From positions 437,844,001 to 437,908,000 of the forward strand of contig OZ024740.1 in the NCBI GenBank assembly GCA_964016885.1: 64,000 bases of DNA, read 5' to 3'. The notes beneath the pieces are model-generated. The model saw only the letters and a list, made by a program, of their open reading frames with translations, was not told where the DNA came from and ran no database searches. The stretch comes from Eledone cirrhosa. Lineage: Eukaryota. Positions 1 to 29,054 of this stretch are shown here, in pieces. Both the position numbers and the translations under genes were made by a program. Each line of letters begins with the position of its first letter. Positions within the stretch are counted from its first letter, which is position 1.

Positions 1-3000
1 TAATATAGACTTTGTCATGTTACTAATATAGACTTTGTTATGTTACTAATATAGACTTTGTCATGCTACTAATATAGACTGTGTCATGTTACTAATATAG
101 ACTTTGTCATTCTACTAATATTGACTTTGTCGTGTTACTAATATAGACTGTCATGTTACTAATATAGACTTTGTCATGTTACTAATATAGACTTTGTCAT
201 GTTACTAATATAGACTTTGTCATGTTACTAATATAGACTTTGTTATGTTACTAATATAGACTTTGTTATGTTACTAATATAGACTTTGTTATGTTACTAA
301 TATAGACCTTGTTATGTTACTAATATAGACTTTGTTATGTTACTAATATAGACTTTGTTATGTTACTAATGTAGACTTTGTTATGTTACTAATGTAGACT
401 TTGTCATGTTACTAATGTAGACTGATGTTACTAATATAGACTGTGTCATGTTACTAATATAGACTGTGTCATGTTACTAATATAGATTGTGTCCTGTTAC
501 TAATATAGACTTTGTTGTGTTACTAATATAGACTTTGTTATGTTACTAATATAGACTTTGTCATGTTACTAATATAGACTGATGTTACTAATATAGACTG
601 TGTCATGTTACTAATATAGACTGTGTCATGTTACTAATATTGACTTTGTCATGTTACTAATATAGACTTTGTCATGTTACTAATATAGACTTTGTCATGT
701 TACTAATATAGACTTTGTCATGTTACTAATATAGACTTTGTCATGTTACTAATATAGACTTTGTCATGTTACTAATATAGACTTTGTCATGTTACTAATA
801 TTGACTTTGTCATGTTACTAATATAGACTTTGTCATATTACTAATATAGACTTTGTCATGTTACTAATATTGACTTTGTCATGTTACTAATATAGACTTT
901 GTCATGCTACTAATATTGACTTTGTCATGTTACTAATATAGACTTTGTCATGTTACTAATATAGACTTTGTTATATTACTAATATAGACTTTGTCATGCT
1001 ACTAATATAGACTGTGTCATGTTACTAATATAGACTTTGTCATTCTACTAATATTGACTTTGTCGTGTTACTAATATAGACTGTCATGTTACTAATATAG
1101 ACTTTGTCATGTTACTAATATAGACTTTGTCATGTTACTAATATAGACTTTGTCATGTTACTAATATAGACTTTGTCATGTTACTAATATAGACTTTGTT
1201 ATGTTACTAATATAGACTTTGTTATGTTACTAATATAGACTTTGTTATGTTACTAATATAGACTTTGTTATGTTACTAATATAGACCTTGTTATGTTACT
1301 AATATAGACTTTGTTATGTTACTAATATAGACTTTGTTATGTTACTAATGTAGACTTTGTTATGTTACTAATGTAGACTTTGTCATGTTACTAATGTAGA
1401 CTGATGTTACTAATATAGACTGTGTCATGTTACTAATATAGACTGTGTCATGTTACTAATATAGATTGTGTCCTGTTACTAATATAGACTTTGTTGTGTT
1501 ACTAATATAGACTTTGTTATGTTACTAATATAGACTTTGTCATGTTACTAATATAGACTGATGTTACTAATATAGACTGTGTTATGTTACTAATATAGAC
1601 TGTGTCATGTTACTAATATTGACTTTGTCATGTTACTAATATAGACTTTGTCATGTTACTAATATAGACTTTGTCATGTTACTAATATAGACTTTGTCAT
1701 GTTACTAATATAGACTTTGTCATGTTACTAATATTGACTTTGTCATGTTACTAATATTGACTTTGTCATGTTACTAATATAGACTTTGTCATGCTACTAA
1801 TATAGACTTTGTCATGTTACTAATATAGACTTTGTCATGTTACTAATATAGACTTTGTCATGTTACTAATATAGACTTTGTCATGTTACTAATATAGACT
1901 TTGTCATGTTACTAATATAGACTTTGTCATGTTACTAATATAGACTTTGTCATGTTACTAATATTGACTTTGTCATGTTACTAATATTGACTTTGTCATG
2001 TTACTAATATTGACTTTGTCATGTTACTAATATAGACTTTGTCATGTTACTAATATTGACTTTGTCATGTTACTAATATAGACTGTGTCATGTTACTAAT
2101 ATAGACTTTGTCATGTAACTAATATAGACTTTGTCATGTAACTAATATAGACTTTGTCATGCTACTAATATTGACTTCGTCGTGTTACTAATATAGACTG
2201 TCATGTTACTAATATAGACTTTGTCATGTTACTAATATAGACTTTGTCATGTTACTAATATAGACTTTGTCATGTTACTAATATAGACTTTGTCATGTCA
2301 CTAATATAGACTGTGTCATGTTACTAATATAGACTTTGTCATGTTACTAATATAGACTTTGTCATGTTACTAATATAGACTTTGTCATGATACTAATATA
2401 GACTTTGTCATGTTACTAATATAGACTTTGTCATGTTACTAATATAGACTTTGTCATGTTACTAATATTGACTTTGTCATGTTACTAATATTGACTTTGT
2501 TATGTTACTAATATAGACTTTGTTATGTTACTAATATAGACTTTGTCATGTTACTAATATAGACTGTGTCATGTTACTAATATAGACTTTGTCGTGTTAC
2601 TAATATAGACTTTGTCATGCTACTAATATAGACTTTGTCATGTTACTAATATAGACTTTGTCATGTTACTAATATAGACTTTGTCATGTTACTAATATAG
2701 ACTTTGTCATGTTACTAATATAGACTTTGTCATGTTACTAATATTGACTTTGTCATGTTACTAATATTGACTTTGTCATGCTACTAATATAGACTTTGTC
2801 ATGTTACTAATATAGACTCTCATGTTACTAATATAGACTGTCATGTTACTAATATAGACATTGTCATGCTACTAATATAGACATTGTCATGTTACTAATA
2901 TAGACTTTGTTATGCTACTAATATAGACTTTGTCATGTTACTAATATAGACTGTCATGTTACTAATATAGACTTTCTTTTGTTACTAATATTGACTTTGT

Positions 3001-6000
3001 CATGTTACTAATATAGACTTTGTCATGTTACTAATATAGACTTTGTCATGTTACTAATATAGACTTTGTTATGTTACTAATATAGACTTTGTCATGCTAC
3101 TAATATAGACTGTGTCATGTTACTAATATAGACTTTGTCATTCTACTAATATTGACTTTGTCGTGTTACTAATATAGACTGTCATGTTACTAATATAGAC
3201 TTTGTCATGTTACTAATATAGACTTTGTCATGTTACTAATATAGACTTTGTCATGTTACTAATATAGACTTTGTTATGTTACTAATATAGACTTTGTTAT
3301 GTTACTAATATAGACTTTGTTATGTTACTAATATAGACCTTGTTATGTTACTAATATAGACTTTGTTATGTTACTAATATAGACTTTGTTATGTTACTAA
3401 TGTAGACTTTGTTATGTTACTAATGTAGACTTTGTCATGTTACTAATGTAGACTGATGTTACTAATATAGACTGTGTCATGTTACTAATATAGACTGTGT
3501 CATGTTACTAATATAGATTGTGTCCTGTTACTAATATAGACTTTGTTGTGTTACTAATATAGACTTTGTTATGTTACTAATATAGACTTTGTCATGTTAC
3601 TAATATAGACTGATGTTACTAATATAGACTGTGTCATGTTACTAATATAGACTGTGTCATGTTACTAATATTGACTTTGTCATGTTACTAATATAGACTT
3701 TGTCATGTTACTAATATAGACTTTGTCATGTTACTAATATAGACTTTGTCATGTTACTAATATAGACTTTGTCATGTTACTAATATAGACTTTGTCATGT
3801 TACTAATATAGACTTTGTCATGTTACTAATATTGACTTTGTCATGTTACTAATATAGACTTTGTCATATTACTAATATAGACTTTGTCATGTTACTAATA
3901 TTGACTTTGTCATGTTACTAATATAGACTTTGTCATGCTACTAATATTGACTTTGTCATGTTACTAATATAGACTTTGTCATGTTACTAATATAGACTTT
4001 GTTATATTACTAATATAGACTTTGTCATGCTACTAATATAGACTGTGTCATGTTACTAATATAGACTTTGTCATTCTACTAATATTGACTTTGTCGTGTT
4101 ACTAATATAGACTGTCATGTTACTAATATAGACTTTGTCATGTTACTAATATAGACTTTGTCATGTTACTAATATAGACTTTGTCATGTTACTAATATAG
4201 ACTTTGTCATGTTACTAATATAGACTTTGTTATGTTACTAATATAGACTTTGTTATGTTACTAATATAGACTTTGTTATGTTACTAATATAGACTTTGTT
4301 ATGTTACTAATATAGACCTTGTTATGTTACTAATATAGACTTTGTTATGTTACTAATATAGACTTTGTTATGTTACTAATGTAGACTTTGTTATGTTACT
4401 AATGTAGACTTTGTCATGTTACTAATGTAGACTGATGTTACTAATATAGACTGTGTCATGTTACTAATATAGACTGTGTCATGTTACTAATATAGATTGT
4501 GTCCTGTTACTAATATAGACTTTGTTGTGTTACTAATATAGACTTTGTTATGTTACTAATATAGACTTTGTCATGTTACTAATATAGACTGATGTTACTA
4601 ATATAGACTGTGTTATGTTACTAATATAGACTGTGTCATGTTACTAATATTGACTTTGTCATGTTACTAATATAGACTTTGTCATGTTACTAATATAGAC
4701 TTTGTCATGTTACTAATATAGACTTTGTCATGTTACTAATATAGACTTTGTCATGTTACTAATATTGACTTTGTCATGTTACTAATATTGACTTTGTCAT
4801 GTTACTAATATAGACTTTGTCATGCTACTAATATAGACTTTGTCATGTTACTAATATAGACTTTGTCATGTTACTAATATAGACTTTGTCATGTTACTAA
4901 TATAGACTTTGTCATGTTACTAATATAGACTTTGTCATGTTACTAATATAGACTTTGTCATGTTACTAATATAGACTTTGTCATGTTACTAATATTGACT
5001 TTGTCATGTTACTAATATTGACTTTGTCATGTTACTAATATTGACTTTGTCATGTTACTAATATAGACTTTGTCATGTTACTAATATTGACTTTGTCATG
5101 TTACTAATATAGACTGTGTCATGTTACTAATATAGACTTTGTCATGTAACTAATATAGACTTTGTCATGTAACTAATATAGACTTTGTCATGCTACTAAT
5201 ATTGACTTCGTCGTGTTACTAATATAGACTGTCATGTTACTAATATAGACTTTGTCATGTTACTAATATAGACTTTGTCATGTTACTAATATAGACTTTG
5301 TCATGTTACTAATATAGACTTTGTCATGTCACTAATATAGACTGTGTCATGTTACTAATATAGACTTTGTCATGTTACTAATATAGACTTTGTCATGTTA
5401 CTAATATAGACTTTGTCATGATACTAATATAGACTTTGTCATGTTACTAATATAGACTTTGTCATGTTACTAATATAGACTTTGTCATGTTACTAATATT
5501 GACTTTGTCATGTTACTAATATTGACTTTGTTATGTTACTAATATAGACTTTGTTATGTTACTAATATAGACTTTGTCATGTTACTAATATAGACTGTGT
5601 CATGTTACTAATATAGACTTTGTCGTGTTACTAATATAGACTTTGTCATGCTACTAATATAGACTTTGTCATGTTACTAATATAGACTTTGTCATGTTAC
5701 TAATATAGACTTTGTCATGTTACTAATATAGACTTTGTCATGTTACTAATATAGACTTTGTCATGTTACTAATATTGACTTTGTCATGTTACTAATATTG
5801 ACTTTGTCATGCTACTAATATAGACTTTGTCATGTTACTAATATAGACTCTCATGTTACTAATATAGACTGTCATGTTACTAATATAGACATTGTCATGC
5901 TACTAATATAGACATTGTCATGTTACTAATATAGACTTTGTTATGCTACTAATATAGACTTTGTCATGTTACTAATATAGACTGTCATGTTACTAATATA

Positions 6001-8281
6001 GACTTTCTTTTGTTACTAATATTGACTTTGTCATGTTACTAATATAGACTTTGTCATGTTACTAATATAGACTTTGTCATGTTACTAATATAGACTGTCA
6101 TGTTACTAATATAGACTTTGTCATGTTACTAATATAGACTGTGTGATGTTACTAATATAGACTTTGTCATGTTACTAATATAGACTTTGTCATGTTACTA
6201 ATATAGACTTTGTCATGTTACTAATATAGACTGTGTCATGTTACTAATATAGACTGTGTCATGTTACTAATATAGACTTTGTCATGTTACTAATATAGAC
6301 TTTGTCATGTTACTAATATAGACTTTGTCATGTTACTAATATAGACTTTGTCATGTTACTAATATAGACTTTGTCATGTTACTAATATAGACTTTGTCAT
6401 GTTACTAATATAGACTTTGTCATGTTACTAATATTGACTTTGTCACGTTACTAATATAGACTGTCATGTTACTAATATTGACTTTGTCATGTTACTAATA
6501 TAGACTTTGTCATGGTACTAATATTGACTTTGTCATGTTACTAATATAGACTTTGTCATGTTACTAATATAGACTTTGTTATGTTACTAATATAGACTTT
6601 GTTATGTTACTAATATAGACTTTGTCATGTTACTAATATAGACTGTGTCATGTTACTAATATAGACTTTGTCGTGTTACTAATATAGACTTTGTCATGCT
6701 ACTAATATAGACTGTCATGTTACTAATATAGACTTTGTCATGTTACTAATATAGACTTTGTCATGTTACTAATATAGACTTTGTCATGTTACTAATATTG
6801 ACTTTGTCATGCTACTAATATAGACTTTGTCATGTTACTAATATAGACTGTCATGTTACTAATATAGACTGTCATGTTACTAATATAGACATTGTCATGC
6901 TACTAATATAGACATTGTAATGTTACTAATATAGACTTTGTTATGCTACTAATATAGACTTTGTCATGTTACTAATATAGACTGTCATGTTACTAATATA
7001 GACTTTCTTTTGTTACTAATATTGACTTTGTCATGTTACTAATATAGACTTTGTCATGTTACTAATATAGACTTTGTCATGTTACTAATATAGACTGTCA
7101 TGTTACTAATATAGACTTTGTCATGTTACTAATATAGACTGTGTGATGTTACTAATATAGACTTTGTCATGTTACTAATATAGACTTTGTCATGTTACTA
7201 ATATAGACTTTGTCATGTTACTAATATAGACTTTGTCATGTTACTAATATAGACTGTGTCATGTTACTAATATAGACTGTGTCATGTTACTAATATAGAC
7301 CGTCATGTTACTAATATAGACTTTGTCATGTTACTAATATAGACTTTGTCATGTTACTAATATAGACTTTGTCATGTTACTAATATAGACTTTGTCATGT
7401 TACTAATATAGACTTTGTCATGTTACTAATATAGACTGTGTCATGTTACTAATATAGACTTTGTAATGTTACTAATATAGACTTTGTCATGTTACTAATA
7501 TAGGCTTTGTCATGTTACTAATATAGACTTTGTCATGTTACTAATATAGACTGTCATGTTACTAATATAGACTGTGTCATGTTACTAATATAGACTTTGT
7601 CATGTTACTAATATAGACTTTGTCATGTTACTAATATAGACTTTGTCGTGTTACTAATATAGACTTTGTCGTGTTACTAATATAGACTTTGTCATGTTAC
7701 TAATATAGACTTTGTCATGTTACTAATATAGACTTTGTCATGTTACTAATATAGACTTTGTCGTGTTACTAATATAGACTTTGTCGTGTTACTAATATAG
7801 ACTTTGTCGTGTTACTAATATAGACTTTGTCGTGTTACTAATATAGACTTTGTCATGTTACTAATATAGACTTTGTCATGTTACTAATATAGACTTTGTC
7901 ATGTTACTAATATAGACTTTGTCGTGTTACTAATATAGACTGTCATGTTACTAATATAGACTGTCATGTTACTAATATAGACTTTGTCATGTTACTAATA
8001 TAGACTTTGTCATGTTACTAATATAGACTGTGTCATGTTACTAATATAGACTGTCATGTTACTAATATAGACTTTGTCATGTTACTAATATAGACTTTGT
8101 CATGTTACTAATATAGACTTTGTCATGTTACTAATATAGACTTTGTCATGTTACTAATATAGACTTTGTCATGCTACTAATATAGACTTTGTCATGTTAC
8201 TAATATAGACTTTGTCACGTTACTAATATAGACGTTGTCATGTTACTAATATAGACGTTGTCATGCTACTAATATAGACTT
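1..8281. repeat. 23-bp tandem satellite (TAATATAGACTTTGTCATGTTAC)n with higher-order structure
   Basis: Roughly 360 head-to-tail units with point variants and 19-21 bp deletion variants. No unique spacers. The array runs off the left edge of the window. Confidence 0.98.
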
Positions 8282-8759
8282 TTTGTTGTTTTTTTTGTAT
8301 ATATTTATATATATATATGACTAACTGGAATGACTTAGATATTGGGCTGAAACTCATCTTGTGAACTCTTGTTTACACATATCGGGAATTAGGCAAGAGG
8401 TATAACAATTGTAAATAGTAAATATTTACATGTTTGACCAATTTATAGTAATGTCAGAAAAAATTTAGTTTTCTTCCTGTTGTCAAATAAATTTTGCTTA
8501 GTTTTTGTTATTTACAACGGCATTTTGAAATGTAACGTATAGCTTCTTTAATAAACAAATATTTGACATTTTTTTTACATAATAGTAAATATTTAATAAC
8601 TGAATATTATTATAATTAAATATAATATAAATTAATTTTATTTTTTATTTTTCTGAAAAATCATGGGCAATAATTATGGAAAGCATAACCTAGAGTATTT
8701 CCACAAACTGCATATACAGGACTAAGAATAATGATGTTAGTGCTGCACACAGTAGTGGG

Positions 8760-11700
8760 TTGACTAACTTAGCCATGTGTGAAAACCCATCAAGAGATTG
8801 CACAACCACTTTCCCTTTCAGATACAGAAAGCTGTTACTACTCTCAGATAAATCATTTCAATTGCATGATGATGGGCAGATCTGGAGGCTTGTTAAGGCT
8901 GGTGAAACGTGGAAGAGAGATACCAGCTGGTCTGAGTGTGATCTACCCACAATAACTGGCAATGAAAAAACTGCTACAACTCTGGGAAACTAAACCAGAA
9001 CAACCTGCCACCCTCTACACACCATCATAAACTGCGAGCAGGGTACAAATTGTTGTCCTTAAATGCTCGCAGTTTATGCAACAAGATACATATGTTTGAA
9101 TCCTATGTCAGAAGCATCGACCCTGACTTCATCAGTCACAGAAACATGGGCACATTCCTTACTCTGTGATGGGGTTTTCAGCATTACTGGGTACAACCTT
9201 TTCCACAAGGACCACATTAATCGCCGTGGTGGTGGTGGTGTGATGGTCTACGTTCGTTCAAACTTTTCGGTAATTCCTTGCGTTGATTTGAACGAATCAC
9301 AGGAAGAAGTTTTTTTCTGTGACATACGTATGACCATGTCAACACTTCTGCTTGGTGTTGTTTATCGCCCCCCCAAACTACCATCAGGACACACAGCTTT
9401 GCGATATCCTCAGAGTTGCTGCCAAGAAAACAGCCACTTATGTGTTTATTGCAGGTGACTTCAATCATCCTGAGATCGATTGGGAAACCTTTCGTTGGCC
9501 ACAAGGTGCAAACGATTTCCTTGAACTAGTGCTGGACTCAAACTGGTCACAAGTAGTCACCTCTCCAACAAGAGGTGACAACACTTTGGACCTGATCTTC
9601 ACCACTACTCCCGAAGTGGTTATCAGTTGTACTACTGAGGAACCTCTAGGCGACTCTGATCATGCTATGATCATTGCCAATCTGGCACTTGAGGGCAGCA
9701 ACAAAAACCAGAGCCATCTCTAATCTGCTTGCTTTGATTGGAAGAAAGCAGATTGGAACTTGTACTGCACTGAGCTACAGCGCCCAAACTGGCATGAGAT
9801 GTATAACTCTGGAGATGTGAACACTATACTCCAGAGCATCCTGGACTCAATATGGATAGCGTGTGCAGCATCGGTGCCACGTAAGCAGAAAAAAAACCAC
9901 CCCAAAAGTGCAATTTGGGAAACTTCAGCGGTCCGACTTCCCATGAAAAAACGTCTGAACACTGAACGGGAATATAAACTGCATAAATCAGATGCCAACA
10001 GAAAAAAGCGGAATAAATCTTCTAACCATCTCAAGCAAGTGACAAATAAGGCAGTGCTTGAATTTGAACAGTGCATAGCAACCAATCCTGACAGTAAGGT
10101 GTTCTGGAAATATGTTCATTCAAAGCAGAGACTTCACTCTCCAGTTGGTCCTCTTCGCAATCCCCACACAAGCCAGATCACTGACGATCCCAAAGAATGC
10201 GCAGAACTCATTGCTGAGTGCTATGCAAGTATTTTTACTGTTGAAAACCAGAATGTACCATCTCCACCATCTCTAACATCAAATTCCATAACAACTATGG
10301 AATTTACACCTGCAATGTTGCGACATCACCTTAAGAATAAGTGCAACTATGCCTCCCCTGGTCTTGATGGTGTTACATACCTACTTCTCAAACGTGGCGG
10401 GTATTTCCTTTTGTGCCAGCTTTCTTTCTTCTTTCAATACTGTCTCAACAATGGTGCTACTCCGGAGCAGTGGAAAACTGCCAGTGTCATTCCCCTGTTC
10501 AAAAAGGGCAACCGCATGTCACCTGTCAACTATCGTCCAGTCAGTCTTACTAGCTGTATGGCCAAACTGATGGAATCCTGTGTCAGAGAAACACTTTGGA
10601 ACTTCTGGAGCTCTCACAGCCTCATCCGGCCCTCACATTTTGGATTTATCCCTAACTCCAGCTGCTGTGATCAGCTTATTGAGTTCCTTGAAGACATCAC
10701 CCAGATCACTGACAGCGGCTCATGGGTGGATGTTGTTTACCTTGACTTTGCTAAGGCTTTTAATTCTGTGCCACACAAAAGACTTATGGCAAAACTCTCT
10801 GCAATGGGTGTGAGGGATGATCTTTTCGACTGGTTGAAATCCTTCATTCTCAGCCGAAAAGAACTAGTCACGGTTCTAGGACAGCATTCTTCACCATATG
10901 AGATGTCATCTGGTGAACCACAGGGATCTGTTCTTGGTCCCCTTTTGTTTGTGGCATATATTAATGACATAGATGCCAACTTACAGAATGCCACGGTACT
11001 GAAATATGCAGATGACATCAAGCTGTACCTTGAAATCAAAAGGACTGATCCTGAAATCTACAACTCTTTCCTACAATCAGACCTGGATACAATGCAGCAA
11101 TGGATCACAGACTGGCAACTGAAGCTGGCTGTGGACAAGTGTACCACCATGCATTTTGGGAGGAAAAATCCAGCGTCCACATACTCCCTCCACAACACTG
11201 ATATCAAGAAGTCCTCTTGTGAACGTGACCTTGGCATTACTGTCAGCAGCGATTTGCGTTGGACAAAGCATGTCTCTAAGATTGCAAAAGAAGGCCGAGG
11301 GTGTCTTGGCATCATTCAGCAAGACCTTTGTTAGCCGCTCTCCAGTCATCTATTTAAAACTGTATACAGCTATGGTATGACCACACTTGGAATTCGCATC
11401 ATCAGTCTGGAATCCCTATCTTGCTCAGAACATAGACCTCCTGGAAACTGTTCAGAGACGTGCAACCAAGCACATACCCTCCATCAGACACCTACCATAC
11501 TCTGAACGCCTTGCTTCCCTGGGCATGGATTCATTGAAGCTCCGACGTCTGGCAATGGACTTGGTAAATACCCACAAAGTTATTAACCATCTCGCCAATT
11601 GCAACCCTGAGCACCTTTTTGATCTCCATGTGTCTAACACACGTGGACATGCCTACAAAATCAGAAAACAGCACAGCTCCCATGACTTTCGTAGACATTT

Positions 11701-12097
11701 TTTCACGCTCAGAGTTGCTGAAGCATGGAACAAACTGCCTGCGTCAGTTGTTAGCTGCCGAGACACTGCATCCTTTAAGACACTCATGCTTCCCGAAATA
11801 CGCCAAAACTACACCTGATGTACCCCTTCCATACACATGCACACATGTGTGTATCATGACTCGTGCACTGTTCATTTTACTGATGTTTGTGCATTGCCCT
11901 ATGTACTGTACATGCACTTTTTGATGAGTTGTGGTGCACCTGGGCACTGTACACAATATTTCATTATTATTATATCATGACTCATACACTGTTCATTTTC
12001 CTGACATTTGTACATTATTCTATGTACTATATATGCACCTTTGATGAGTTGTAGTGCACCTGAGCACTGTACACAATAATTTCATTATTATTATTAT
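8760..12097 (+). mobile_element. CR1/L2-group LINE, degenerate (ORF1 tail, APE endonuclease, RT)
   Basis: APE motifs GVVYRPP, AGDFNHP, LDLIFT, LGDSDH (9063-9723). RT motifs NYRPVSLTS, VYLDFAKAF, QGSVLGPLLF, KYADD (9760-11334). C-terminus VQRRATK...RVAEAWNKLP and an (ATT)n tail. Frameshifts and stops present. Confidence 0.92.
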
Positions 12098-13464: not shown

Positions 13465-13653
13465 ATAATTGTTTCTACTTTAGGCACAAGGCCCGCAATT
13501 ACCCAGTGCATTACTGGTACTTTATTTTATCGACCCCGTAAGGATGAAAGGCAAAGTCAACCTCGGCGGGATTTGAACTCAGATCGTAAAGGGACGTAAC
13601 TATGCTGGAAAGCATGGCGTCCGACCCTCTACCAATACTGCCAATCCACCGCC
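13465..13653 (-). mobile_element. Full-length tRNA-derived SINE with Nin/Deu-like core
   Basis: A box TGGCAGTATTGG, B box GAGTTCAAATCC, core GCCTTTCATCCTTACGGGGTCGATAAAAT. Candidate TSD AAATAAGCAATAAT at 13456 and 13659. Many other copies in the window. Confidence 0.85.
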
Positions 13654-14642: not shown

Positions 14643-16504
14643 AATGAAGGAGTTGTGGTAAGGAACCAGATGGACCATAACGCACCAGAGTACTCAATAC
14701 TTAGGGTAGTAGAGTGGGTAATAGGAAAAAGTATGACCCCGACGGCAGAGCTCAAGCCGTTTCGACGACTATTTCTGGACTAAATTAGAATTTTTAGTCT
14801 GGTAAATAAATAGCCGAACTTTTTAAGGGGTACTTCCTTATATGGGAAGATTGTAGTTGTCAAGAGGATTGGTCAAAATTTGTTGTAAACACAAATAAGT
14901 CTATCATGGCAGTGGCTGGGGAGTGGGGGTGGCTGAACTTGCCTGCAGAACAATGAGGGAGTGGGTGGAGCCGGTCAAGCGGTGAAAGTGAAATCTATAT
15001 GGCAAATTCTAAGGATTGTGTATGAAAGTAGGCCAGAGGAGGTAGGCGAAAAAAGGTTTCTGGAGAAAATAGAGGAGGGACGTTATAGAATGGGTAAATC
15101 AATTGAGATTAGGAGACAATAAAAAAATAAGAGAAAGATATACAAAAATAAAAAATTGGATAGTGAGAAGTGATAAAAAACAAAAACTATAGAGTCTAAA
15201 ACAGCTGCTATATTTAGTTGGTGTTGCTTTTTCGGCCAATGCTAGAGAATGAGTTGAGAATAGAAGATACTAAATAAGAATTATTGAAATTGTAGAATTG
15301 GATAGTAAAAAGTAATACAAAATCTCTGGGGTCTAACACAGCTGCTATGATTAGTTAGTATAGAGTATTCGTCCAATGCTATCTTTAAGTTACTGGGGTG
15401 GGGGTACTGAGGCTACAGAGGCCTGATGAGCTGCCTCGGGGTAGCCGAAAGGAAAAAAAAAAACGAACGAGGAAGATCGGTGGTGGAAGGAGGTGATAGG
15501 AGGAGACAAAGGGAAGAGGAAAACATAGAGGAAAAGAAAAGAGGTACATCTACCTATGTAAGCTGGAGTTTCCCCTATCTTATTCGGCAAGTGGGGTGTT
15601 TCAGCCCTTGTCTACACACCCAGATCGTTAGGGGGTTTGAGGGCGAGGTAAGTCTTACGCAATCTGTGTTTGCATGCAGTTACCAGTTCGTCTTTTTTGT
15701 TTAGGAGTTGATCCTTTGTAAACAGCATTTGTAATGTTTCCTCCGAGCATAAGTTACACGGACGGCATCCTCCCATGTAAGAGTTAGCTCTGGACAGTAA
15801 CGTGATCTACCAGTGCAACGTGAGGACGGACACTTCCAACAAAGCTTATATAGGATTAACCGCTTGTGTCTTAAGACCCGGCTCTACCAACACCAACATA
15901 CGTTCCGAAACCCAGTCCGGCAACATGCCACTACACTTTTGGGCTACATCTGGGACCTCCAAGATAACAATATAACCCACAATCTCACTTGGAGCTTACT
16001 GTCCAGAGCTAACTCTTACACAGGAGGACGCCGCAGCTGTTTTAGACTCTATAGTTTTTGTTTTTATCACTTCTCACTATCCAATTTTTTATTTTTGTAT
16101 ATCTTTCTCTTATTTTTTTATTGTCTCCTAATCTCAATTAATTTACCCATTCTATAACGTCCCTCCTCTATTTTCTCCAGAAACCTTTTTTCGCCTACAT
16201 CCTCTGGCCTACTTTCATACACAATCCTTAGAATTTGCCATATAGATTTCACTTTCAACGCTTGACGGCTCCACCCACTCCCTCATTGTTCTACAGTTAA
16301 GTTCAGCCACCCCCACCTCCCAGCCACTGCCATGATAGACTTATTTGTGTTTACAACAAATTTTGACCAATCCAACTTCCCATATAAGGAAGTACCCCTT
16401 GAAAAGTTCGGCTATTTATTTACCAGACTAAAAATTCTAATTTAGTCCAGAAATAGCCGTCGAAACGGCTTGAGCTCTGCCATCGGGGTCATACTTTTTC
16501 CTAT
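14643..16504. mobile_element. Two head-to-head 3' fragments of a Penelope-like element forming an inverted repeat
   Basis: Plus arm from about 15799 encodes GIY-YIG (NVIYQC...AYIGLT, LKTRLYQH). Minus arm encodes CNLCSEE...LLNKKDELVTACKH. 14721-15208 is the reverse complement of 16033-16504. Flanked by (TA)n. Confidence 0.85.
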
Positions 16505-21228: not shown

Positions 21229-21393
21229 CTTGAATATCTGAAAATCCAATTCATTGCCTTGATTAGTTGTGTTCCGTTTCCAAAGAATCTGAAAAGTTCC
21301 CTCTCTTTTATCAGTCCATCTGAGACCTGAAACATTTCCACGGTCAAGTTTCTTCACAAGCCAAGGCAGTAATTTTTCTCTTGAATTTGACAT
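21229..21393 (-). CDS. IRF: IRF coding exon 1 (first half of DNA-binding domain); exon begins at 21413
   Basis: MSNSREKLLPWLVKKLDRGNVSGLRWTDKREGTFQILWKRNTTNQGNELDFQIFK. W11/W26/W38 spacing is identical to IRF1/2. Acceptor ttttgcag ends at 21414 and donor AAG|gtaatt follows FK, an intron position also seen in vertebrate IRF4/8. Confidence 0.93.
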
Positions 21394-26252: not shown

Positions 26253-26756
26253 TATTGTCTTTATTAGCAACACAGGGCTCACATTAAGGAGACATTAAAG
26301 ACGGTACATGACGATACAGTGTGGAGGGTTTTTTGTATAAAATAAAATTTATAAGAGATAAAGAAGATAAACATAAAAATATATTCGTTGTTAATAAGTT
26401 ATAATGCAAAATTTAGAAAAATTGCCCCTCTCCCATCCACTACCCTCACCCCAATCAGTTCTACATGGTCACTCATCTTGCTAGAAATAGCAGCCATAAC
26501 ATCCTTAAATCACTCATCTATCACCTTAAAAAATAAAATAAAATAAAAAGTAGGACCCGTTAGATAATGTGATGTTGGAAACATGTATAAATAAAAGACA
26601 GGATAGTCACAAATGGAGCGGATTTGATCATAGGTTTGTGTGTGCATGGAACTATATATTTATGTATGTGCGTTTATATGTAAGTTTGTTGTGTATATGT
26701 ATATGTGTATATATATATATATAGAGAGAGAGAGATCAAGTTGAATATAGAAATGG

Positions 26757-26803
26757 CTTCTACAGGACTAGAACTGTTTCATTCAAAAGAAATCATCAGG
26801 AAA
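26757..26803 (-). ncRNA. Type I hammerhead ribozyme motif (probable solo PLE terminus)
   Basis: TTTC CTGATGA T TTC-TTTT-GAA T GAAA CAG-TTCTAGTC-CTG TA GAAG. Canonical core boxes, three stems and a GUA cleavage triplet. Stem II is weak. Confidence 0.65.
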
Positions 26804-26951
26804 GTTGTGTTGTGTACGTTATTAACTGTGGTTACTCCCGATTGAACCCGGGACTCACACACACACACACACACTTATGTAAAGGGCTGGTCTACAGTAA
26901 ATCAACAAAAATAATACTATTAGAAAAACATTTTTGAAAAAAAAAACTTAC

Positions 26952-27060
26952 GTAATGGAAAGTTTTGTTTTGAAGTACTAATGAGATTTCTAAATTAATT
27001 CAAATATGTTTCGATAATATATCTAGAGTGTACATAGATTCGCCTATGATAGAAACATAC
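26952..27060 (-). other. Candidate non-coding first exon of the IRF gene
   Basis: Begins about 30 nt downstream of TATAAAA and ends at CATTAC|GTAAGT. The ATG-containing exon has an acceptor, so an upstream exon is required. Confidence 0.5.
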
Positions 27061-27082
27061 TACGAAGATCCGGGTTGTTACG

Positions 27083-27164
27083 TTTTATAAATACCTGTTA
27101 GTTTCAGTTTCAACTAATTTCCCCGAATTGTGGGGAAAATCTTTTTCTTTTGAAATGATGTAAT
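27083..27164 (-). promoter_or_regulatory. Candidate IRF promoter: TATA, ISRE, GAS, kB-like and C/EBP-ATF-like sites
   Basis: TATAAAA on the minus strand (27083-27089), AGTTTCAGTTTC (27100-27111), TTCCCCGAA (27119-27127), GGGGAAAATC (27132-27141), TGATGTAAT (27156-27164). Confidence 0.6.
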
Positions 27165-27611
27165 CATACTATGTAGAGCGCCTATGGTTGTATACGCCTA
27201 CGTTTGTGTATATCTAAATATGTCATGTATGCTAACTCATATATATATGTACGAGTATATATAAATATGTCATGTAAGCTAACTCATATATACATACATA
27301 CGGTTGTTTTTGTTCATACGTAACACGTAATCTATATATATAAAATTTGTCTGAGTGTGTGTCCTCATTTTTGCAAAGTCTATACAAATCCACATTTCTA
27401 CTCGGATTGACTTCAAACTTGTATTTATATATTCCTTGCGGGCTAAAGATATTAACTGCAGCTTTTATTTTTCAATGTTCTGTTGTTAAAGGGGTGTAAG
27501 GCGCCGGTTATCGATCTCCGTCGAGCCCTTATAATATCTGTCTGTATGTCTGACTGTCTGCATTAAACATACTGACGAACACGTCATTGCTGACGTATTA
27601 TCTTCGCTACA

Positions 27612-28074: not shown

Positions 28075-28960
28075 AGTCCTACGCAATCTGTGTTTGCATG
28101 CGGTTACCAGTTCGTCTTTCTCGAAAACTTACCTCGCCCTCAAACCCCATAACGACCCGGGTGGGTAGACAGGGGCTGATACTCCCCCCACCCACTTGCT
28201 GAATAAGTTCGGGGAAACCCCAGCTTACTTATGTAGATGTATCTCTTTTCTTTTCCTCTTTGTCTTCTTCTTCCCCCTGTCTCATCCTATCACTTCCTTC
28301 CACCCCCTATTTTCTTCCTCGTCTGCTTTTCCCCTTTCGCCTATCCCGATGCAGCCCATTGGGCCTCTGTAGCATCAGTTTCCCCACCCCTGTAATTTTA
28401 AGATAGAATTGGCCGAATACGTTTTGCTAACTACTTATATCAGATGTGTTAAACCCCTTTAATTTTGTATCAGTTCTGGTACTACTCAATTTCTACAAGT
28501 TTTTTTTATTCTCAACTTATTAAGCTGTAATTGTAAAATAGGATTGTGATTTTTTTTATTCATTTCTCACTATATATATATATATTTTTTTTTTCTATTA
28601 TCTTTTATTGTCTCCTACTCTCATTCGATTTACCTATTCTATAACCACCCTCCTCCACTTCATACACTATCCTTAGAATCTGCTGTATACATATCACTTT
28701 CAACGCTTGACCGCTCCACTCACACCCCTATTGTTCTACAGGCAAGTTCAGCCGCCCCTACCTCCCACCAAATGCCATGATAGACTTATTTGTGTTTACA
28801 ACAAATTTTAACCAATCCTCTTGACAACTACAATCTTCCCATATAAGGAAGTACCCCCTTGACAAGTTCGGCTATTTATTCACCAGGCTAAAAATTCTAA
28901 TTTAGTCCAGAAATAGCCGTCGAAACGGCTTGAGCTCTGCCGTCGGGGTCATACTTTTTA
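28075..28960 (+). mobile_element. Penelope-like 3' end / pseudo-LTR (same family as 14643-16504)
   Basis: Reverse-complement match to 14725-15654. The first ~45 bp are inverted relative to the rest. Confidence 0.8.
28853..28949 (+). ncRNA. Variant hammerhead ribozyme (UUGACAA core, long stem II)
   Basis: Stem I CCCC/GGGG, stem II CGGCTATTT/AAATAGCCG, GAAA, stem III ACGGC/GCCGT, GUC triplet. Confidence 0.65.
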
Positions 28961-29054
28961 CTATATAGTTATATATATATTTATATATATATTTATATTT
29001 ATATTTATATCATCATCATCATCATCATCATCATCATATATATATATTTATATT

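Follow-up and report, generated by a model that had tools for sequence, protein, structure and literature searches.

Molluscs induce IRFs and interferon-stimulated-type genes after exposure to double-stranded RNA. The locus described here raises the question of whether a cluster of motifs of about 85 bp, located ~5.5-5.7 kb upstream of an IRF gene and on the same strand as the gene, is the promoter of that gene, and which transcription factors would act on it. We propose that the cluster corresponds to the proximal promoter and the non-coding first exon of an octopod gene of the IRF4 supergroup, working as a predicted ISRE+GAS composite switch, a reading to which we assign a probability of roughly 55%. 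Judged from its sequence, the cluster is probably a real STAT/IRF composite promoter of a known kind. Throughout, the window is the whole 64-kb stretch of DNA that was analysed.

The gene is represented in the window by two exons:

21413-21229, minus strand: IRF exon with an AG acceptor, a 20 nt leader, the ATG at 21393 and codons 1-55 of the DNA-binding domain, followed by a phase-0 donor
17450-17285, minus strand: IRF exon with codons 56-110 of the DNA-binding domain, followed by a phase-1 donor

Both exons match Pfam PF00605 (E 6.7e-12 and E 4.9e-09, respectively) and together they encode an intact 110-residue IRF DNA-binding domain in which the five Trp residues are aligned. Neither tblastn nor a 4-sequence profile run over 3,304 reading frames detected later IRF exons in the 64-kb window, and a homologue search with exon 2 alone gave no match. 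The DNA-binding domain is 64% identical to the IRFs of Octopus sinensis and O. bimaculoides, 50% identical to that of Argonauta and 37-45% identical to the other 11 relatives aligned, and in the tree the gene clusters with four octopod proteins at a clade support of 100/99. The host, which the initial annotation had taken for a probable cephalopod, is accordingly a cephalopod of the octopod type. As the gene groups with the four octopod proteins at this support and its best identity is 64%, it would come from an octopod outside that four-protein set or represent a paralogue.

The closest relatives (P0002, P0037 and P0038) carry the IRF-3 association domain PF10401, and the C-terminal exons of the gene itself lie outside the window, which we count against the promoter reading. 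Database names of these octopod relatives are IRF1 or IRF5, despite PF10401. The intron of the gene falls at FK|EW, which we take to be the IRF4-supergroup position, and we read the gene as an octopod IRF of the IRF4 supergroup, not as an IRF1. Affiliation with the IRF1 subfamily was not found: the relatives have PF10401 and the gene stands away from the L041/L017 clade, which is IRF1-like by motif, in a tree that took in 23 of the 80 loci described below and had no named IRF1 among its members. By eye, the region downstream of the last IRF exon found holds a tandem array with a unit of ~23 bp that extends over 8.3 kb (window 1-8270) and probably lies inside an intron. A largely intact LINE-like element, also recognised by eye, runs antisense to the IRF gene at 8694-11820 (+), and its reverse-transcriptase-like frame at 9724-11334 is 536 codons long.

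Upstream of the ATG exon, the cluster and the predicted first exon comprise the following elements, listed in the direction of the gene, with distances given from the predicted start:

27156-27164: TGATGTAAT, about -95 to -103; gene strand ATTACATCA (27164-27156)
27145-27154: TTC-N4-GAA element TTCTTTTGAA; gene strand TTCAAAAGAA (27154-27145)
27132-27141: kB-like element GGGGAAAATC; gene strand GATTTTCCCC
27118-27127: predicted GAS (STAT dimer site) TTTCCCCGAA, about -58 to -66; gene strand TTCGGGGAA (27127-27119)
27099-27111: ISRE / IRF element TAGTTTCAGTTTC, about -39 to -50; gene (minus) strand GAAACTGAAACT (27111-27100)
27089-27083, minus strand: TATA box candidate TATAAAA
27086-27093, plus strand: second-face TATA TATAAATA, overlapping the minus-strand TATAAAA
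26952-27061, minus strand: predicted non-coding exon 1 of ~110 nt, placed by spacing
26951-26946, minus strand: splice donor candidate tac|GTAAGT, with the boundary at 26952|26951

On the gene strand, the order toward the gene is that of the five upstream sites, TATAAAA and then the donor. TATA, ISRE and GAS together occupy exactly 45 bp, and all three are where the initial annotation had placed them. The ISRE consists of two GAAA repeats at the right spacing, and a gap of 7 bp separates it from the GAS, whose core TTCCCCGAA (TTCN3GAA) is, we believe, identical to the GAS of mammalian IRF1. Among the neighbouring sites that had been claimed, the TTC-N4-GAA element, with a spacing that we take to be of the STAT6 type, and TGATGTAAT, which presumably fits the C/EBP-ATF composite bZIP consensus TGATGxAAx, are both present; the kB-like element is likewise present but off-consensus, fitting the loose GGGRNNWWYC (a pattern with 23 matches in the 64-kb window) and not GGGRNWYYCC, a point against the promoter reading. 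The GAS TTTCCCCGAA fits TTCN2-4GAA, the consensus given in PMC7819612. The GTAAGT donor, proposed at about 130 nt past the TATA, was measured at 138 nt downstream of the TATA's first T and is on the minus strand, that of the IRF exons.

How much of this arrangement could arise by chance was assessed with dinucleotide shuffles, using as strict patterns the ISRE AGTTTCNNTTTC and the GAS TTCCNNGAA within 50 bp of each other. Shuffling the 347-bp island around the cluster produced the strict pair in 4/100,000 cases, and shuffling the 10 kb that precede the ATG exon did so in 0/3,000, a non-random pairing that argues for a promoter. Looser definitions gave far more pairs: loose patterns paired in 112/100,000 island shuffles and in 67/3,000 shuffles of 10 kb, and very loose ones in 664/3,000. 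The strict ISRE has 2 matches in 64 kb, no GAAASYGAAAS match other than the ISRE of the cluster occurs in 8401-64000, and the GAS belongs to the strong type TTCCSSGAA, of which there are 2 in 55.6 kb. The lesser motifs are frequent in the window (TATAAAA 31, GTAAGT 22, TTC-N4-GAA 40 strand-hits, TGATGYAA 6), and the last two are each weak evidence when taken alone. As the strict, loose and very loose shuffle counts indicate, the ISRE+GAS core is the part of the cluster that exceeds chance, and the remaining words add plausibility. A sliding-window count of motif classes, in which the cluster alone had at least 4 of 6 classes, was set aside as circular, the classes having been drawn from the cluster.

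The setting of the cluster bears on the same point. It lies in a short island bordered by repeats:

26744-26804: high-copy repeat on the intron side of the island, summed depth up to 2.5 million (repeat depth was seen over 26725-26844)
26884-27230: single-copy island of 347 bp holding the cluster, with a CpG observed/expected ratio of 1.3
27235-27594: high-copy repeats on the upstream side of the island, summed depth up to ~400,000

Copy number was checked against the contigs of 3 runs of one sample, aligned at 85% likeness. One 537-nt contig (depth 3.9-5) extends across 26884-27381 in 3/3 runs, and self-comparison found no other copy of the island within the 64-kb window. Depth is not equivalent to copy number, yet the depth of the island equals that of its one contig, and the possibility of a high-copy repeat, which the initial annotation had itself raised, is excluded at this likeness. 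A search of 24-30 kb against Rfam returned 0 matches. Single copy between repeats is a further point for the promoter.

It is very unlikely, in our estimate, that the cluster is a chance grouping or the decayed remnant of a mobile element in AT-rich DNA with no regulatory role. Patterns of this sort were sought across many windows, the loose versions pair in 10-kb shuffles at the frequency given above, and a second TTCCCCGAA at 28208-28216, 1.1 kb upstream of the cluster, is overlapped by a consensus kB GGGAAACCCC (28208-28221) inside a repeat (28124-28964). Another copy of this repeat at 14721-15656 (75% identical) has the kB match at 15574 and no GAS. The strict pair, however, has a chance frequency below 1 in 3,000 per 10 kb and stands in front of an IRF gene, the island has a single copy at 85% likeness, and the same class of motif is enriched upstream of other IRF genes, as described below.

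The ATG exon begins with a pyrimidine tract and an AG acceptor 20 nt before the ATG; the initial annotation had claimed that it needs an upstream exon. We infer that transcription starts near 27060 on the minus strand, at 27061 or 27058 (28-31 nt from the TATA), and that the transcript would be spliced from 26952 to 21413. Relative to this predicted start the upstream sites span about -39 to -106, and the predicted leader holds two short upstream ORFs of 4 and 11 codons. The candidate donor is the sole minus-strand GTAAGT between 21414 and 28131, 8 further GTRAG sites separate this donor from the acceptor, and its exon side (TAC) is weak, which we count against the promoter. So do we count the two-sided TATA, of which the plus-strand TATAAATA fits TATAWAWR and the minus-strand TATAAAA does not. 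A promoter on the plus strand was considered and rejected as the main reading: the initiator-like word TCAGTT at 27104 is only 20 nt from the plus-strand TATA, and the long plus-strand frames beyond it resemble retroelements by eye.

The CpG observed/expected ratio rises from 0.22 at 20-24 kb to 0.91 at 24-28 kb and reaches 1.3 in the island, so that the CpG depletion of the gene body stops 3 kb before the cluster. Gene-body methylation is expected to end before the 5' end of a gene, and the profile fits a methylated gene body of this kind; the CpG rise before the predicted 5' end thus speaks for the promoter. The CpG-rich DNA covers 24-32 kb, bracketing the start to that range without pinpointing it, and this breadth is a point on the other side. 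Controls made with the CpGs of repeat copies were mixed, the copy on the gene side being lower in 4/6 pairs and a SINE copy at 13502 having retained its CpGs. Annotated orthologues are XP_029643519 (O. sinensis), XP_014786721 (O. bimaculoides), CAI9715085 (O. vulgaris) and GAB1600669 (Argonauta). In the Octopus orthologues a single protein has several RefSeq accessions (3 and 4), which makes UTR variants likely; several UTR forms may count against a single promoter at the cluster.

These observations also bear on the possibility that the IRF gene has its main start elsewhere and uses the cluster as a functional STAT/IRF enhancer or as an alternative promoter of minor importance, which we consider fairly unlikely. 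Such an element would suit the two-sided TATA in AT-rich DNA, which yields many TATA+donor pairs (17 on the minus strand in 21414-64000, of which 3 are below 28,000), as well as CpG-rich DNA that starts already at 24 kb and several RefSeq accessions per orthologous protein, and it would have a parallel in human STAT1, whose distal ISRE+GAS composite is at -5.5 kb (PMC10287828). On the other hand, the sites form a stack to one side of the TATA, at promoter-proximal distances, and the GTAAGT located 138 nt downstream, on the strand of the gene, is the sole minus-strand one within 6.7 kb. This succession of sites, TATA and donor counts for the proposed promoter with its non-coding first exon.

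Whether IRF genes of other invertebrates are preceded by similar sites was examined in metagenome contigs scanned with a 14-IRF alignment, which gave 136 relatives; the best 80 of 136 were used. The 80 loci fell into 45 groups (megablast plus three manual merges), each represented by the member with the longest 5' flank, and 28 groups could be anchored at the domain start. The IRF site GAAASYGAAA is present within 1 kb upstream in 6/28 anchored groups versus 0.40 expected (0/400 shuffles), and four scrambled or mis-spaced control patterns were found in 0-1/28 groups. Counted over the 45 groups, there are 9 sites in 32.0 kb within 1 kb upstream (shuffle mean 0.59, 0/200), 6 in 68.9 kb farther upstream (shuffle mean 1.39, 1/200) and 1 in 94.4 kb downstream (shuffle mean 1.84). 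The GAS alone is not enriched upstream (5/28 versus 2.3; 28/400 shuffles), and the IRF site is absent from the 1 kb upstream in 22/28 groups, many of whose flanks are short; both results count against the promoter, as does the choice of the comparative patterns and of the 150-bp distance used below after inspection of the upstream sites of the coral-like loci. The groups are related to one another, some contigs are possibly transcripts, and the anchor of L051 is the second exon of the domain. Of the 80 loci, 23 were put in the tree, where none was placed with the octopods, and no cephalopod locus was recovered; the loci compared are non-orthologous, which is again counted against. The bivalve-like group contributed 1,032 bp of flank at most. 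An upstream enrichment of kB matches (4/28; 0/400 shuffles) was left unused, since 7 matches also occur in 60.6 kb downstream.

An IRF site and a GAS within 150 bp of each other were found upstream in 3 groups (L002, L051 and L079), compared with a shuffle mean of 0.07 and a maximum of 2 in 150 shuffles, 0/150 reaching 3, and never downstream. In L079, whose nearest named relative is Arenicola marina (68%), a tandem ISRE at -730 and TTCCGCGAA at -668 are followed by an acceptor just before the ATG, repeating the layout of the window. ISRE and strong GAS upstream of intron-containing IRF genes are 56 bp apart in L079:9269-9341 and 107 bp apart in L051:6146-6263, likewise in L064, and in L051 a gtaagt donor candidate follows ~200 bp beyond the pair. 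In a stony-coral-like set, the cluster of which holds the Orbicella faveolata IRF8-like protein, GAAANNGAAA occurs within 170 bp in 16/19 loci and is missing from 3, and in a sister set GAAAGCGAAAG is at -157 or -158 in 9/9 loci. The protein comparison of L002 gave the IRF family only. Identity of the IRF-site column among the coral loci was not used, its rows having been chosen for carrying the motif (15/19 and 7/9 loci).

Some side observations were made among these relatives. Across the coral-like loci L002-L010 and the L029 set GAAAGCGAAAG is near-fixed at ~155-160 bp before the domain, and the upstream region of the L002 set also has CCAAT and GGGAAAAACCC. L041:1950-2135, IRF1-like by motif, presents CCAAT, TGACGTCA, the GAS TTCCAGGAA, GGGAATACCC, TATATAAA and a GTAAGT donor, then the ATG, a layout much like that of the window with no ISRE in the cluster. 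P0001 (Acipenser ruthenus XP_058871454.1) is an uncharacterised sturgeon protein of 1,797 residues in which a repeated module contains IRF-like stretches, five in all.

As IRF sites are enriched upstream of other invertebrate IRF genes, an IRF site in front of such a gene would be an expected feature, which raises the odds that the site in the window is real; together with the recurrent ISRE+GAS pairs, this favours the promoter. The description of the element as vertebrate-style is not supported. Oyster IRF2 and IRF8 mRNAs are induced by virus and poly(I:C) and both proteins activate ISRE reporters (PMC5557890), and as oyster IRFs do so and IRF sites precede coral IRF genes, the grammar looks ancient.

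Which IRF would bind the ISRE is a separate matter. At the position of IRF1 His40, to which we attribute a DNA-contact role, Arg is found here and in 4/14 relatives and His in the other 10. The GAAA contacts of IRF1 are R82, C83, N86 and S87 (PMC7819612); in the window gene the Arg and the Asn are retained, Asn stands at C83, and Lys stands at S87 as in most molluscan relatives. As human IRF3 has Ser at the C83 position, the Cys83-to-Asn change need not abolish DNA binding. Together, Cys83-to-Asn and His40-to-Arg may nevertheless change the IRF's own binding to DNA, a point that we hold against the promoter reading, and because two DNA-contact positions differ, self-regulation by the encoded IRF is doubtful. 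The element had been termed autoregulated; the ISRE may instead be bound by a different IRF. One that could do so is the product of an octopus transcript that carries the annotation IRF2 (PMC10778463). The octopod IRFs (the window gene, P0002 and P0037-P0039) have Arg for His40 and Asn for Cys83 in common, and their branch in the tree is long.

These residues are compatible with another alternative, that the promoter is real and only part of the set works, either IRF with NF-kB, or STAT in the development of haemocytes or in inflammation generally; the reading as a composite antiviral feedback would then be wrong. In the same direction point the enrichment of the IRF site and not of the GAS at other invertebrate IRF loci, the action of oyster IRF1 and IRF8 in LPS-induced haemocyte proliferation (PMC13524488), and the octopus 'IRF2', which PMC10778463 describes as a hub after LPS and not after poly(I:C). 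We regard this alternative as unlikely, given that the GAS is of the strong type TTCCSSGAA and only 7 bp from the ISRE and that ISRE+GAS pairs recur upstream in L002, L051 and L079.

Since the gene belongs to the IRF4 supergroup as we read it and is not an IRF1, human IRF9, which we take to be a member of the IRF4 supergroup like the family of the window gene, is the closer model. To our knowledge, the invertebrate host has no recognised interferon and no STAT2 or IRF9 orthologue, and ISGF3 thus cannot be assumed. Human IRF9 and STAT2 have functional ISRE+GAS promoters that form a positive feedback loop (PMC10287828). The predicted promoter of the window resembles them in having an ISRE near a GAS in the proximal promoter of one of the pathway's own transcription factors, and its 7-bp spacing is inside the range of 0-415 bp found across 43 human composite genes (PMC10287828). 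It differs in adding a TATA and kB-like and bZIP sites, and in that the human elements have been put to binding and mutation tests (PMC10287828), the window element being predicted from sequence. The mammalian IRF1 promoter offers a partial likeness, as a GAS lies upstream of an IRF gene and IRF1 responds to IFN and NF-kB (PMC7819612). The IRF1 analogy drawn in the initial annotation is not supported: the gene is not of the IRF1 type, its relatives carrying PF10401 and its intron being of the IRF4 group, and the human IRF1 promoter is described in PMC7819612 as containing a GAS and no ISGF3-responsive ISRE.

Closer to the host, invertebrate circuits share elements of the proposed switch, in that IRFs act on ISREs, double-stranded RNA induces IRF mRNAs and STATs act on native promoters. 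Besides the oyster IRF2 and IRF8 mentioned above, CgIRF1 (oyster IRF1) binds an ISRE and activates CgIFNLP (PMC13524488, PMC8218723), shrimp LvIRF binds the Vago4 promoter (10.1101/2022.12.18.520954), amphioxus STATs act on the native viperin and Mx promoters (10.64898/2026.08.17.745176), and the IRFs of Nematostella and corals are induced by poly(I:C) (PMC13319465, in the main text of which the word 'motif' is absent). The targets in oyster, shrimp and amphioxus are cytokine or effector genes or mammalian reporters; in the parts covered, these reports contain no native ISRE+GAS on an IRF gene and no cephalopod promoter. More generally, no invertebrate IRF promoter with ISRE+GAS was described in the literature covered, which includes few subscription papers on fish and shellfish immunology, and the covered parts of PMC5869526, PMC11934927, PMC4199593 and PMC11228953 hold nothing on promoters. 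According to 10.64898/2026.08.17.745176, molluscs have neither the canonical ligands nor the canonical receptors of IFN. In Nematostella, single knockdowns of IRF or STAT did not blunt the response to cGAMP (PMC8713801), which we count against the proposal, and the oyster IRF2/IRF8 (PMC5557890) and human IRF9/STAT2 (PMC10287828) precedents, by analogy, favour it.

We therefore envisage the switch, by its likeness to these systems, as follows. A cytokine-activated STAT dimer would bind the GAS early, and expression would be prolonged by an IRF on the ISRE, for which the encoded protein and a paralogue are equally plausible, with NF-kB and a bZIP factor possibly adding input. The resulting feedback loop, with a presumed antiviral role, would be like that on human IRF9 and STAT2.

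Tentatively, and at somewhat less than even odds, we suggest that the vertebrate interferon feedback wiring, namely STAT and IRFs acting on a composite site in an IRF promoter, predates interferon and is common to cephalopods, annelid-like animals and corals. What is new here is that IRF sites are enriched in the 1 kb that precedes other invertebrate IRF genes, and if the cluster is the IRF promoter, it would, together with this enrichment at coral-like and annelid-like loci, date IRF feedback control before interferon. As the likely promoter of the gene, the cluster would let STAT and IRF proteins boost the immune response of an animal that lacks a recognised interferon. If the 85-bp cluster is the IRF promoter, it would provide a native cephalopod STAT/IRF reporter for candidate ligands, a read-out with which to find the mollusc cytokine that stands in for interferon. 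As invertebrate IRFs are already known to act on ISREs, specialists may find the result useful more than very surprising; its value would lie in a testable handle on a mollusc STAT/IRF loop and in a hint of ancestral IRF feedback sites in animals.
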